DNA of 43,016 nt, taken from positions 1 through 43,016 of IMG/VR virus record IMGVR_UViG_3300002026_000066, one strand, 5' to 3'. Under the pieces are notes generated by a model that was given only the letters and a program-made list of their open reading frames with translations, did no database searches and had not been told where the DNA came from. The DNA is from a virus. Positions 37,891-40,971 of this stretch are shown here, one piece after another. Numbering within the stretch: position 1 is the first letter of the stretch; each line of letters starts with the position of its first letter. The translations under genes were made by a program, and so were the position numbers.

Positions 37891-39315
37891 ATGAACCTGA
37901 TGAACCCCCTGAAAACCGGCATGGCCAACGTGGCCGGGCTGTTTGCCAAGCTGATGCCGAGCGCCATGAACGTTGGGGCAGAGCGCGGCGACCGCCTGGC
38001 CAGCGATGACGCCATGGAGCGGCTGTACCGCACCATGTGGATTGACTTTGACCGCAAAGCCCAGGTGCGGCTGATGCGCGAGATGGACATGAAAGACGGC
38101 CGCGTGAAAACCGTGCACAGCCGCGTGGCGCGTGACGTGGTGAAGGGCGGGCTGCTGATGCAGGTAAGCGAGCGCTTCAGCAGCGAGACGCTGAAGCGGG
38201 AGTGGACGGGCTTTCATGCCCGGGTGCAGCTGAACAACAGCCAGAAGCTGAAAAGCGATGCCCGCGGTCTGTTAATGGAAGGCAACCTGCCCTTGCAACT
38301 GGTGCTGGACGATGCCCGGCGCGACGTGGTGTCGGCCATCCGCATGCCCAGCGAAACCATTGTGCCCATGACCAACGCACAGGGCCGCTTTGCCAACCCC
38401 GCCAACGCCTTTGAGCAGCGCGACGTGATGACCGGTGCCGTGCTGGCCAACTTTGCCGCCTGGCAGCTGATGCTGTGCAGGCTTGACCCCTACAACTTTG
38501 ACGACCTTGGCAGCATGGGCCGCCCCTGGCTGGACGCCAGTTGCACCGTGTGGAAAAAGCTGGTGATGACCGAGGAAGACCTGGTGATTCGCCGGCGCAT
38601 GCGTGCCCCGCTGCGCCTGGCTCACGTGCTGGAAGGTGCCGACGAACCCACGTTGGAGGCCTACCGCCGAAAGGCAGAGGGGCAAAAGGGCGAAATCACC
38701 ACCGACTTTTACCTGAACCGCAAGGGCGGGGTGCAGGCCATTCAAGGTGACGCCACGCTGGGCGACATTGCCGATGTGGCCCACCTGCTGGACACCTTTT
38801 TTGCAGGCAGCCCCGCACCCAAAGGCCTGTTTGGCTACACGGGCGACATGCAGCGCGACATTCTGGAAGACCTGAAGCGCGACTACTACGCCGAGGTAGA
38901 CGGCCTGCAAGACACCCTGGCCAGCGCCTACATGACCGCCTTCAGGGTGCACCTGCTGTTCAAAGGCATTGACCCCGCGCCAGACGAATTCACCGTGCGG
39001 TTTGCCGAGCGGCGCACCGAAACATTCAACCAGGCCGCTGACCTGGCGCTGAAGTACATCGCCCTGGGCCTGCCGCACCGGCTGGTGTGGGCCGAGCTGG
39101 GGTATGACCCCGACGAGATCGAGGCCATGCTGGCAGAACAGCGCAGGAACGGCGATGCCTACCCAGTGCCGAATGCGACCGGGCGCAATGCGGTGAACCT
39201 GCCCGGCCAAGGTGGCACGCCGAATGTGAGCGTGACCCCTGGCAACGCGCCCAAGGGCGAAAGCGCCACCAGCATCAACAACCCTGGCGGGAATGGTGGG
39301 CGGGGCAGGGCATGA
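37891..39315 (+). CDS. Portal protein
   Basis: ATG at 37891 inside the track ORF 37774-39315, 474 aa. Located between the large terminase and MuF-like genes. Confidence 0.65.
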   Translation: MNLMNPLKTGMANVAGLFAKLMPSAMNVGAERGDRLASDDAMERLYRTMWIDFDRKAQVRLMREMDMKDGRVKTVHSRVARDVVKGGLLMQVSERFSSETLKREWTGFHARVQLNNSQKLKSDARGLLMEGNLPLQLVLDDARRDVVSAIRMPSETIVPMTNAQGRFANPANAFEQRDVMTGAVLANFAAWQLMLCRLDPYNFDDLGSMGRPWLDASCTVWKKLVMTEEDLVIRRRMRAPLRLAHVLEGADEPTLEAYRRKAEGQKGEITTDFYLNRKGGVQAIQGDATLGDIADVAHLLDTFFAGSPAPKGLFGYTGDMQRDILEDLKRDYYAEVDGLQDTLASAYMTAFRVHLLFKGIDPAPDEFTVRFAERRTETFNQAADLALKYIALGLPHRLVWAELGYDPDEIEAMLAEQRRNGDAYPVPNATGRNAVNLPGQGGTPNVSVTPGNAPKGESATSINNPGGNGGRGRA

Positions 39316-40757
39316 AAACCCCCGCCGCCATCCGCCGGGCCAGCAAACAGGCGCGTAACGCCATGTACGAGCTGGACCGTGCCACCAGTGCCGAGCTGCG
39401 CACCGACTACCAGCGTGCAGCCGATGCCGTGCGGGCGGCCATTGCGCAGGCCACGGGCCCTGATGACCTGGTGCGGCGCGAACACCTGCAGGGCCTGCTG
39501 CGGCAGATTGAAGACATCTTGCAGCGCATGGGCCTGGCGCGTGATGCCGTGCTGACCGGTGCGCTGGAACAGGCCGCCACCCTGGGCGTGCGCCCCTACA
39601 CCCTGCAAGGCGTGGGCGCTGTGGGGGGCAGCACGGCCGTGCTGGACAGCGCAGCGGCCATGCGCATCAGCGAAGCGGCGGTGGAGTTTGTGGCCAGTTT
39701 TCGCATGGCCGATGGCCTGGCCCTGAGCGACCGCCTGTGGCGGCTGGACCTGGGCGCAAAAGAGGTGCTGCAACGCGCAGTCAGCAACGCAGTGGCGCAG
39801 GGCTGGAGCGCAAGCAAGGCCGTGGTCGACCTGATGTATGGCGGAAAACCCGTGCCTCCCGAGCTGGCCGCCACGCTGGGCCGTGCCCGACAAGGTGCAC
39901 TGCTGAACCTGGCCGACTTGCTGACCGGCGGGGAGAAGGGTGCCGATGGCTCCGAGCTGTGGAAAGCCGAGCGGGTGATGCGTACGGAAATTAACCGGGC
40001 GCATGGCGAGGCCTACGCCGAAAGCGCGCAGCGCACGCCGGGGTTTGCGGGCTTTCGGTACCTGCTGAGCCCGCGCCACCCTGAGCCTGACATATGCGAC
40101 CTGTTGGCCAGCCAGAACCTGCACGGCCTGGGGCCTGGCGTGTACCCCGACCGCGAGCGCACCCCATGGCCAGCACACCCCAACACCCTGAGCTTTTTGG
40201 AAGTGGTGTTTGCCGACGAGGTGACCGACGCCGACCGCGCAGGCAAGGAAACCGAGCTGCAAGCCCTGCAACGCCTGGGGCCCGCCGTGCGCCAGGGCGT
40301 GCTGGGCGTGACCAAGGCCGCGTACTTTGACCAGGGGCTGCTGCGCCGGGGCATGCTGCGCAGCCCGTTGCGGGCGGTGGAGGCGCGGTTGAAGCGGCAG
40401 GGCGCCCCACTGGTGCCCAAGGTTGCCGTGCTGCCCAACGTGGCACGGGCTGTCATTCCCATTCCCAAGGTGTTTGACTACATGCTCAACGTCAACCACC
40501 CCAGGGGTGCCCACAAAGCCAAGGTGTTTGCATCTGCACTGGGCTTCACAGTGGCAAACGGTGACTTGCTGATTGCGGCCATTCGTTCGCAGGCGCAAAC
40601 AGCCAAGGCCGAAGTGGTTGCACACACGCCATATGGCACCACATACCGGGTAGACATGGATGTGACAGGCCCGGGTGGAACTGCTATGGTTCGCACCGGC
40701 TGGATCGTTGACCCTGAAACCGGCATTGCGCGGCTGACATCCGCCTACGTGAAGTAA
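39312..40757 (+). CDS. MuF/SPP1 gp7-like head morphogenesis protein with a C-terminal DUF6883-like extension
   Basis: MuF core: ERVMRTEINRAHGEAY...DICDLL...WPAHPNTLSFLEVVF. The C-terminal roughly 120 aa (KVFDYMLNVNHPRGAHKAKVFASALGFT...YGTTYRVDMDVTGPGG...VRTGWIVDPETGIARLTSAYV) fit the DUF6883 pattern as I recall it. Confidence 0.7.
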   Translation: MKTPAAIRRASKQARNAMYELDRATSAELRTDYQRAADAVRAAIAQATGPDDLVRREHLQGLLRQIEDILQRMGLARDAVLTGALEQAATLGVRPYTLQGVGAVGGSTAVLDSAAAMRISEAAVEFVASFRMADGLALSDRLWRLDLGAKEVLQRAVSNAVAQGWSASKAVVDLMYGGKPVPPELAATLGRARQGALLNLADLLTGGEKGADGSELWKAERVMRTEINRAHGEAYAESAQRTPGFAGFRYLLSPRHPEPDICDLLASQNLHGLGPGVYPDRERTPWPAHPNTLSFLEVVFADEVTDADRAGKETELQALQRLGPAVRQGVLGVTKAAYFDQGLLRRGMLRSPLRAVEARLKRQGAPLVPKVAVLPNVARAVIPIPKVFDYMLNVNHPRGAHKAKVFASALGFTVANGDLLIAAIRSQAQTAKAEVVAHTPYGTTYRVDMDVTGPGGTAMVRTGWIVDPETGIARLTSAYVK

Positions 40758-40761
40758 CCCC

Positions 40762-40971
40762 ATGCAACACACACACACATTTCGACCGCTGGACGTAGTT
40801 GCCCTGCGCAGTGCACAGGGTAGTGTGGCTGCGGGCGCGTTGGGCACAGTGTTGGAAGTCTTTTCCAAACCAGAAGCGGCTTACCTGGTGGAATTTGCCG
40901 ACGACAACGGGGTTGAGATTGAAACCCTGGCCCTGCTGCCATCTCAAATCGAACCTGTTGCCAAACCCTGA
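40762..40971 (+). CDS. DUF4926-like small protein (possible immunity/antitoxin partner of the DUF6883-like domain)
   Basis: The sequence FRPLDVVALRSAQGSVAAGALGTVLEVFSKPEAAYLVEFADDNGVEIETLALLPSQI fits the DUF4926 pattern (D.V.L...+..G..G.IV.V.....Y.VEF.D..G.T). Confidence 0.55.
   Translation: MQHTHTFRPLDVVALRSAQGSVAAGALGTVLEVFSKPEAAYLVEFADDNGVEIETLALLPSQIEPVAKP

Follow-up and report, generated by a model that had tools for sequence, protein, structure and literature searches.

A DUF6883-DUF4926 cassette on the MuF-type head protein of a temperate siphophage, a probable MuF-family polymorphic toxin

Why does a phage head protein end in a domain that the closest sister phages lack? We addressed this question in the window, a stretch of 43,016 nucleotides that spans positions 1 to 43,016 of the IMG/VR virus record IMGVR_UViG_3300002026_000066. 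The MuF-DUF6883 ORF (39312-40757, + strand) starts with ATG and encodes a protein of 481 aa. An earlier note on this DNA had proposed that the C-terminal extension of this protein is DUF6883-like and that a DUF4926-like gene follows 5 nt downstream, and Pfam recovered both families. DUF6883 (PF21814) matched residues 374-480 with 94.7 bits (gathering score 27; E=5.3e-27), covering positions 2-108 of the 110 in the profile. DUF4926 (PF16277) matched residues 10-64 of the next protein with 41.9 bits against a gathering score of 29.1 (E=6.5e-11), covering profile positions 2-56 of 57. Both matches far exceed chance. The predicted toxin domain, DUF6883 or BECR-Tox3, comprises residues 374-481 and the stop codon (40431..40757, + strand) and was assigned by Pfam. 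The DUF4926 gene (40762..40971, + strand, 69 aa, ATG) encodes the predicted cognate immunity protein. Its start codon lies 5 nt past the last base of the toxin stop codon, as the note had it, leaving a 4-nt spacer, CCCC.

The N-terminal part of the protein belongs to the head module. The core, residues 1-364 (39312..40403, + strand), was identified by PHROG and hhalign and is conserved in all orthologues; matches in more than 60 related loci end at about residue 364. Upstream are a TerL-like gene (36290-37888) and a portal-like gene of 474 aa (37891..39315, + strand), which matched the portal family phrog_104 (7.9e-11) and, weakly, Pfam Portal_T4. The portal-like gene ends, and muf begins, within a shared ATGA, and the order TerL-like, portal-like, muf is identical in loci L001 and L112. 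The core matched PHROG families of head morphogenesis or minor head proteins between 7e-30 and 1e-8 (phrog_1657, 7e-30; phrog_115, 1.6e-9; phrog_4728), annotated head-morphogenesis genes at 1e-15 to 2e-16 in tblastn, and the head-morphogenesis protein gp04 of phiCD27 with 99.2% probability in hhalign. Pfam models PF04233 and PF06152 had no match at E<0.1 in the 481-aa protein or in 27 orthologues, and no NCBIfam model matched the core at E<0.1. Neither phiCD27 gp04 nor Microcystis phage yong1 could serve as a bridge between the core and Pfam Phage_Mu_F, as both lack a PF04233 match. The earlier note's description of a normal MuF/gp7 core therefore has to be qualified: on profile evidence, residues 1-364 represent a divergent head-morphogenesis protein of the MuF type, encoded right behind the portal gene.

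The extension and the following gene probably came into this head module as a unit. The linker (residues 365-373, APLVPKVAV; 40404..40430, + strand) runs from the indel junction to the Pfam domain start. Together, the linker, the DUF6883 domain, and the DUF4926 gene make up a single cassette of 587 nt (40403..40989, + strand), delimited by DNA alignment with sister phages and by GC and GC3. The cassette is present in the window phage and in L112/L113, a second phage with the same MuF-DUF6883-DUF4926 architecture, and is absent from the sister phages L002 and L018, where MuF closes with RQGRV and its gene shares its last bases with the start of the following one. Clean junctions without tail and DUF4926 were found in the closest MuF orthologues, with 92-93% (L002/L018), 70% (L082), 62% (L004), and 61% (L083) identity. 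After the cassette comes a conserved 115-aa gene (orf115; 40990..41337, + strand), which aligned with the gene after the tail-less MuF in L002. It is the usual downstream neighbour of muf in the sister phages, is also present in L112/L113, and has no family match in Pfam, PHROG, PADLOC, or NCBIfam. The cassette is compositionally foreign. Its GC content is 0.584 against 0.691 in the MuF core, and GC3 is 0.65 in the toxin and 0.54 in the immunity gene against 0.82 in the core. The earlier note had named conservation of the extension as a structural part of MuF as a finding that would speak against a toxin. The closest sister phages carry neither the tail nor the partner gene, so the polymorphic-toxin reading holds.

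The cassette is thus discrete and mobile, and horizontal acquisition as an in-frame extension of a minor head protein is the best explanation. Orthologous MuF cores show ten tail states, 'no tail' included, and at least eight unrelated tails were found in other orthologues. Pfam gave sub-threshold matches only for these alternative tails (Pribosyltran, LPD1, Toxin-JAB1, HipA_C, STING_LBD, and ATLF). A match of L028 to residues 3-477 was considered as another DUF6883 copy and discarded, since the profile places the domain only in L001 among 106 related loci. When 36290-42400 was compared by megablast with 50,697 phage records, nothing matched.

The distribution of DUF6883 outside this phage points to the type of domain it is. 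A word-indexed search gave only 4 matches for the DUF6883 domain alone and 2 for the immunity protein; more relatives came from searching exhaustively with the profile and from a query built on it. On 75 long carriers, DUF6883 accompanied RHS, PT-TG, PAAR, LXG, Pyocin_S, eCIS_core, Phage_GPD (VgrG), Phage_Mu_F, Phage_min_cap2, and portal domains, and it was C-terminal in every representative listed. It is fused to several unrelated minor-head-protein PHROG families and to portal proteins. BFVD contains two minor capsid proteins, 473 and 497 aa long, that have this fold at their C-termini (TM 0.80 and 0.74, respectively). The adjacent pairing that the earlier note had described was seen in viral contigs, where a DUF6883 pattern search based on a 5-sequence alignment found DUF4926 directly after DUF6883 in 25 of 30 loci, and in L108, L109, and L111, where the pair lies in orphan arrays behind RHS or other large toxin genes. 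Because DUF6883 rides on many delivery systems and is followed by DUF4926 in most of the viral loci, the two families are, judged from sequence, a polymorphic toxin with its immunity gene.

The DUF6883 domain probably is an RNA-cutting toxin, as its predicted fold suggests. The AF2 model (pLDDT 92, pTM 0.81) has three helices and a four-stranded sheet (H30-37, H46-56, H60-74, E79-85, E88-99, E102-112, and E119-126), and its first ~20 residues, 355-374 of the full-length protein with the linker included, have low pLDDT with block means of 50 and 73. This topology fits BECR, in which helices pack on a four-stranded antiparallel sheet (pre-alpha + alpha-b1-b2-b3-b4). The best PDB match in Foldseek was a BECR tRNase, CdiA-CT EC3006 (6cp8_A), and it was weak (E=3.3e-3, TMq 0.38); the others, cystatin and NTF2 among them, were generic folds of helix plus curved sheet. 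A PDB sequence search with the DUF6883 profile gave chance matches only (E about 1). In BECR ribonuclease toxins, conserved catalytic His/Lys are expected in the helical N-terminal part and Arg/Thr/Ser on the last strands. The active site of CdiA-CT EC3006 consists of K204, Y208, H256, R260, and T330 (PMC9086364). DUF6883 residues K386, Y390, H396, R461, and T462/T476 are of the same types in the same order, a comparison of type and order and not a superposition. Together with K402 they are invariant or nearly so across the family, and the 481-aa protein keeps all family-wide conserved polar residues. We regard K386, Y390, H396, K402, R461, T462, and T476 as candidate catalytic residues.

The phage is a temperate siphophage, and its host probably belongs to Burkholderiales. 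It encodes a tyrosine integrase, a large serine recombinase, a CII-like regulator, and Ant; Arc-type repressors were found in L001, and MuF orthologues sit in bacterial chromosomes. In PADLOC, the MuF-toxin, DUF4926, orf115, and a 278-aa protein matched no defence-system model, and an 88-aa ORF had one sub-significant match.

We consider it likely that the locus is a MuF-family polymorphic toxin, in which a head-protein core has acquired the linker/DUF6883/DUF4926 cassette and would deliver an RNase through the capsid. By analogy with CdiA-CT EC3006 and Kp342, DUF6883 would be a metal-independent BECR-type endoribonuclease, probably a tRNase, using the K/Y/H/R/T set. The DUF4926 protein would be co-translated late and would block the RNase in the producing cell until lysis. 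The MuF core would bring a few toxin copies into the procapsid beside the portal, and the toxin would leave the capsid with the DNA into the next cell, where, if immunity is lacking, it would cut host RNA. The outcome may be host shut-off, counter-defence, a bias between lysis and lysogeny, or the death of competitors that are not lysogens. That the toxin is packaged in the capsid and travels with the DNA is inference, for this phage as for MuF toxins generally. A point against this explanation is the place of the DUF4926 gene in the late operon, which makes it hard to see how a newly infected cell that turns lysogen would survive an injected RNase.

An improbable alternative is that the cassette is a selfish addiction module of the toxin-antitoxin style at a permissive muf 3' end. 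The toxin would then have no role after packaging, being undelivered or cleaved off, and the cassette would persist because loss of the immunity gene kills the producing cell. Free-standing two-gene DUF6883-DUF4926 modules are indeed frequent elsewhere, and the muf 3' end and the stretch after it form a hot spot of foreign DNA. The histories of cassette and backbone are also incongruent, as core identity is 92.3% to L002 without the cassette and 88.5% to L112 with it, and cassette dS is 3-6 times the backbone dS. However, this toxin does not stand alone but continues the reading frame of a virion protein, and the same fusion recurs on unrelated minor-head PHROG families, portals, RHS, PAAR, LXG, pyocin, and eCIS. 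This repeated fusion to virion proteins and dedicated delivery domains argues for selection on delivery. A late-operon gene expressed only in lytic growth also cannot stabilise a prophage.

Still less probable is that the immunity gene is the operative part. DUF4926 would guard the lysogen against DUF6883 toxins from superinfecting relatives or from the RHS, T6SS, or LXG systems of neighbours, and the fused toxin would be secondary. Such toxins are widespread on many delivery systems, orphan toxin/immunity arrays holding DUF4926 exist, and a sigma-70-like site lies at 40662-40690, 72 nt upstream of the DUF4926 start codon. We rejected this site as an internal promoter: it matches at only 9 of 12 positions and lies where the conserved VTGPGGTAMV motif is encoded. 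Constraint on the protein therefore accounts for the same site in L112, which is uninformative alone. The toxin ORF is also intact and under purifying selection (dN/dS 0.13), as is DUF4926 (dN/dS 0.10 against L112). In L112 the toxin stop and the DUF4926 start overlap; this overlap and the 4-nt spacer here indicate that DUF4926 is probably translationally coupled to the late toxin gene. The DUF4926 monomer model was poor (pLDDT 59.7, from a 3-sequence alignment). The least probable alternative is a catalytically inert C-terminal domain for head assembly or DNA/RNA binding, a role proposed for the inactive PBECR (MuF-C) domain of Mu gp30, with DUF4926 as chaperone or assembly partner: Iyer et al. 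(2017, PMC5512222) do place an inactive BECR domain at the C-terminus of Mu gp30, RNase activity of DUF6883 is a prediction, and the fold match to active tRNases is weak, but the domain is dispensable for assembly in sister phages whose cores are 92-93% identical, all seven candidate residues are kept, the domain is common to bona fide secreted toxin systems, and DUF4926 almost always comes next, in non-phage carriers too.

Within the capsid-delivered toxin reading, we can picture the DUF6883 RNase as serving kin discrimination among temperate phages that are almost the same, though we hold this to be rather doubtful. A few injected RNase molecules would arrest or kill cells that lack DUF4926, and cassette-bearing lysogens would be spared if they express it. 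If so, the fast turnover of the cassette, seen in its presence or absence at 92% core identity, its elevated dS, and the variety of tail states, would reflect an arms race among co-circulating phages. The cassette-plus and cassette-minus sisters would then amount to an isogenic pair made by nature, on which MuF-toxin delivery could be tested directly for the first time. In any case, natural pairs with and without the cassette are well suited to the questions of capsid delivery, RNA target, and ecological role.

MuF toxins are widespread, and this type of phage toxin is already described; the locus is a clean example of it and holds no new principle. New here is that the 587-nt cassette is delimited, missing from sisters with 92-93% identical cores, and foreign in composition. 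The locus is thereby a well-delimited proteobacterial case, with precise absence of the cassette in these relatives and both of its genes under purifying selection. In 2017, Jamet et al. (PMC5576092) reported the MuF polymorphic toxins of temperate phages, under the criterion of an N-terminal match to PF04233, PF06152, or the authors' MuF3/MuF4 profiles. Like them, the muf gene here belongs to the head module of a tailed, temperate phage and comes directly after portal, and a conserved N-terminal MuF-type core bears a variable C-terminal extension with a toxin domain common to other polymorphic-toxin families. A small ORF (<150 aa) comes next, here the 69-aa DUF4926, co-inherited as one indel. 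Unlike them, the core falls in a divergent clade missed by the Pfam MuF models, and DUF6883 was not yet a named domain in 2017. The host lineage also differs, being probably Betaproteobacteria, whereas MuF toxins were significantly associated with Firmicutes and proteobacterial MuF extensions were mostly 'without known domain' (Jamet 2017, PMC5576092). One proteobacterial extension without assignment in that survey now has a named domain.

The earlier note had taken the function of the DUF6883/DUF4926 pair on a MuF protein as not described, and this is wrong. An August 2026 preprint (bioRxiv 10.64898/2026.08.28.747851) reports that DUF4926 commonly comes after DUF6883 (BECR-Tox3) and that fusions of the latter to Phage_Mu_F are frequent. 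The Pfam families, the toxin-then-DUF4926 order, and the C-terminal Phage_Mu_F fusion are the same; the preprint is a family-level classification without the window phage, the cassette indel against sisters, or experiments on the pair. Fusions of BECR RNases to MuF or portal proteins (PBECR) were reported in 2017 by Iyer et al. (PMC5512222), likewise with a predicted BECR-type RNase at the C-terminus, for which packaging and injection along with the DNA were proposed. In contrast, no PBECR1-5 Pfam model matches the 481-aa protein, only DUF6883. The passages on PBECR in that paper present these domains as anti-host effectors and mention no paired immunity gene, whereas DUF6883 here travels with one, as in classical polymorphic toxins. 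Like the DUF6883 model, the CdiA-CT tRNases EC3006 (6CP8), the best structural match, and Kp342 (6CP9) have helices in the N-terminal part and then an antiparallel sheet, and their K, Y, H, R, and T active-site set parallels the candidate residues of DUF6883. They differ in having no detectable sequence similarity to DUF6883, in a TM of only 0.38, and in delivery by two-partner secretion (CDI) rather than by a capsid. Their CdiI immunity proteins, all-helical for EC3006 and mostly beta for Kp342, have no demonstrated relationship with DUF4926. T4 Alt is a working model of such delivery, as an in-head enzyme injected with the DNA that acts before phage gene expression (named in PMC5512222). Alt is a separate internal protein for which the passages on it mention no immunity gene, whereas the effector here is covalently fused to the MuF head protein. 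Finally, a type II toxin-antitoxin module is a stand-alone pair of genes with a toxin active in its own cell; the toxin here is instead an in-frame extension of a virion protein within the late structural operon.

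The muf gene of the window (39312-40757, plus strand) starts with ATG and encodes 481 amino acids, of which residues 374-480 belong to DUF6883 (PF21814; 94.7 bits, E=5.3e-27; Pfam gathering score 27). After a 4-nt spacer, a 69-residue ORF on the same strand (40762-40971, also with an ATG start) carries DUF4926 (PF16277) at residues 10-64 (41.9 bits; gathering score 29.1). With both scores above the gathering thresholds, the two domain names given in the earlier note are right. Our chief new result is that a single discrete mobile cassette comprises both the C-terminal tail and the small gene. 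Alignments to the query end at about residue 364 in nearly all of 60 related loci. The closest relatives have a MuF protein of 361-366 aa without the tail, followed directly by a homologue of the window's 115-aa gene (orf115); these tail-less proteins are identical to the window's at 92% (L002) and 93% (L018) in two sister phages, and at 70% (L082), 62% (L004) and 61% (L083) in other loci. The DNA alignment resolves a clean indel, in which 587 nt of the window (40403-40989) stand in place of the last 9 nt of the sister muf genes and comprise the linker, DUF6883, the stop codon, DUF4926 and an 18-nt spacer. The composition of the cassette is foreign: it has a GC content of 0.584, compared with 0.691 for the core, and GC3 is 0.65 in the toxin and 0.54 in the immunity gene, against 0.82. 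One further phage (L112/L113) shares the whole architecture.

We compared the window with L112 to follow the history of the cassette. Amino acid identity is 93.0% for TerL (dS 0.41, dN/dS 0.10), 91.6% for the portal (dS 0.42, dN/dS 0.13), 88.5% for the MuF core, residues 1-364 (dS 0.54, dN/dS 0.14), and 83.5% for orf115 (dS 0.71, dN/dS 0.15). The toxin part is 78.7% identical over residues 374-481, with a dS of 1.27 and a dN/dS of 0.13 over residues 365-481. DUF4926 is 63.0% identical (dN/dS 0.10), and its dS of 2.57, obtained from 69 codons, is near saturation and has qualitative value only. The low dN/dS values indicate purifying selection on both cassette genes, which are thus functionally constrained. 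In the flanking TerL, portal and MuF core, dS lies at 0.41-0.54; in the cassette (window 40403-40971, L112 4650-5222) it is 3-6 times as high. This synonymous divergence suggests that the cassette was exchanged as alleles between related phages and not inherited by vertical co-descent. Judged from sequence divergence, the cassette has an older history than the backbone, or another one, and the core identities agree: L002, which has no tail, shares 92.3% with the window, more than the 88.5% of L112, which has the cassette.

The core and its orthologues match neither Phage_Mu_F nor Phage_min_cap2 in Pfam, nor any NCBIfam model. The core does match PHROGs of head-morphogenesis and minor head proteins (phrog_1657 at 7e-30, phrog_4728 and phrog_115), and tblastn with it hits genes annotated for head morphogenesis in BalMu-1 and the phiCD27 group (1e-15 to 2e-16). 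A profile built from 28 orthologues aligns with phiCD27 gp04 at an hhalign probability of 99.2%, and the gp04 gene likewise sits after its portal gene. The gene order in the window is TerL-like, portal-like and muf, with the portal-like stop codon overlapping the muf start codon. Gene position and remote homology make the N-terminal part a putative divergent MuF-type head protein, without a match to Pfam's own model.

DUF6883 recurs as a predicted toxin domain in many delivery systems. An exhaustive profile search returned 5,465 clusters at 50% identity, and a profile query of an annotated collection returned more than 7,000 at 90% identity, many of which are stand-alone proteins about 110 aa long. 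Among the best 150 representatives (110-904 aa), the domain always ends about 10 residues or less from the C-terminus. On 75 long carriers, Pfam finds secretion-type domains (RHS repeats, RHS core, PT-TG, PAAR, LXG, S-type pyocin, eCIS core and the VgrG-type Phage_GPD) as well as phage-head domains (Phage_Mu_F, Phage_min_cap2, Phage_portal and Portal_Mu), and the carriers hit several distinct head-morphogenesis and portal families in PHROGs. The pairing is systematic: a DUF4926 ORF starts within about 75 nt downstream in 25 of 30 DUF6883 loci on viral contigs, and the orphan cassette arrays of L108, L109 and L111, which lie behind RHS genes or large toxin genes, also have DUF4926 after DUF6883. 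This is the standard toxin-immunity signature across many delivery systems, with DUF6883 as the predicted polymorphic-toxin domain and DUF4926 as its predicted partner. The earlier note took the arrangement on MuF to be undescribed, which is outdated. The definition of MuF polymorphic toxins dates from 2017 (PMC5576092), and another 2017 paper describes fusions of BECR RNases (PBECR) to MuF and portal proteins, proposed to be injected effectors (PMC5512222). A preprint reports that DUF4926 commonly comes after DUF6883 and that fusions of DUF6883 to Phage_Mu_F are frequent (10.64898/2026.08.28.747851). What the window adds is an exactly bounded cassette with natural plus/minus sister phages, in a temperate phage of probable betaproteobacterial host.

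Other MuF orthologues bear at least eight unrelated types of tail of 83-271 aa, plus one of 963 aa. A small overlapping ORF comes after most alternative tails, and in Pfam the tails give only sub-threshold hints. The commonest, of about 242-267 aa, forms one cluster of seven loci (L006, L009, L011, L023, L084, L085 and L094), is followed by an ORF of 101-115 aa with an 11-nt overlap, and matches no Pfam family at threshold. Tail and ORF are a candidate uncharacterised MuF toxin-immunity pair of betaproteobacterial prophages. The 963-aa tail occurs in a Bordetella sp. MAG contig (CAZREB010000016.1; L092, 5001-8948) behind a core of 49% identity and before an overlapping 119-aa ORF. Its sole Pfam hint is a sub-threshold HipA_C, and it looks like a giant cargo in the style of polyvalent proteins.

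The window holds the whole, circularly permuted genome of a temperate siphophage. An exact 91-nt direct repeat lies at both ends (1-91 and 42926-43016), and ENA contig ERZ2286749 NODE_78 (L001; 42,925 bp, equal to 43,016 minus 91) is the same genome in a different permutation, indicating a circular assembly. Besides its tail genes, one of which specifies a 1,458-aa tape measure, the genome encodes an endolysin, a primase, a CII-like regulator and Ant. Two recombinase genes lie near each other, a tyrosine integrase (29569-30690; phrog_1) and a large serine recombinase (31472-33094; phrog_95, E=6.5e-94). In a 903-aa ORF (27-2738), the N-terminal third matches a head maturation protease (phrog_328, residues 54-340); the remainder matches no family and is presumably the scaffold/major capsid part of a protease-capsid fusion. 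Between orf115 and this gene lies a low-GC block (41338-43016; GC 0.466 against about 0.63 for the genome), which matches no PADLOC defence model. It holds a 66-aa ORF (41397-41597), a 278-aa protein without assigned function (41548-42384; phrog_9699, E=1.3e-52) and an 88-aa ORF (42471-42737) whose N-terminus is lipobox-like (MKLLLAAAGLLLVVGC). In L112/L113 the place is taken by an ORF of 125 aa and one with an SNase domain, indicating a second cargo slot adjoining the toxin cassette. Orthologous MuF genes occur in assemblies of Hydrogenophaga, Aquabacterium, Propionivibrio, Nitrosospira, Nitrosovibrio and Bordetella, so the host is likely a betaproteobacterium.

In the mechanism we propose, the MuF core would carry the toxin into the procapsid for ejection with the DNA, the DUF6883 domain would act as an RNase, and DUF4926 would neutralise it during late expression. 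The 4-nt spacer in the window and the stop/start overlap in L112 suggest translational coupling of the two genes. The promoter-like site found upstream of the immunity gene sits in strongly conserved codons and so has no evidential value by itself. According to the literature, each head probably holds 2-3 copies of MuF, which would bind DNA, and delivery of a MuF toxin is putative. An immunity gene in the late operon poses a difficulty for the survival of a new lysogen that receives an injected RNase.

The AlphaFold2 model of residues 355-481, predicted with 29 homologues (pLDDT 92, pTM 0.81), consists of three helices and, after them, a four-stranded antiparallel sheet. The same fold ends phage 'minor capsid proteins' in BFVD that are 473 and 497 aa long (TM 0.80 and 0.74); a metallopeptidase fusion was also returned. 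The top PDB match is weak (6cp8_A, CdiA-CT of E. coli EC3006; E=3.3e-3, TMq 0.38), and the other matches are generic. DUF6883 was independently placed in the colicin-like BECR branch as 'BECR-Tox3' in the August 2026 preprint (10.64898/2026.08.28.747851). 6CP8 is a tRNA-Ile-specific BECR tRNase with the active site K204, Y208, H256, R260 and T330, and its relative Kp342 has K157, Y160, H170, R252 and T255 (PMC9086364). The invariant or near-invariant polar residues of DUF6883 are K386, Y390, H396, K402, R461, T462 and T476, and compared by sequence rather than by superposition, they appear to match those of the EC3006 and Kp342 tRNases in type and order.
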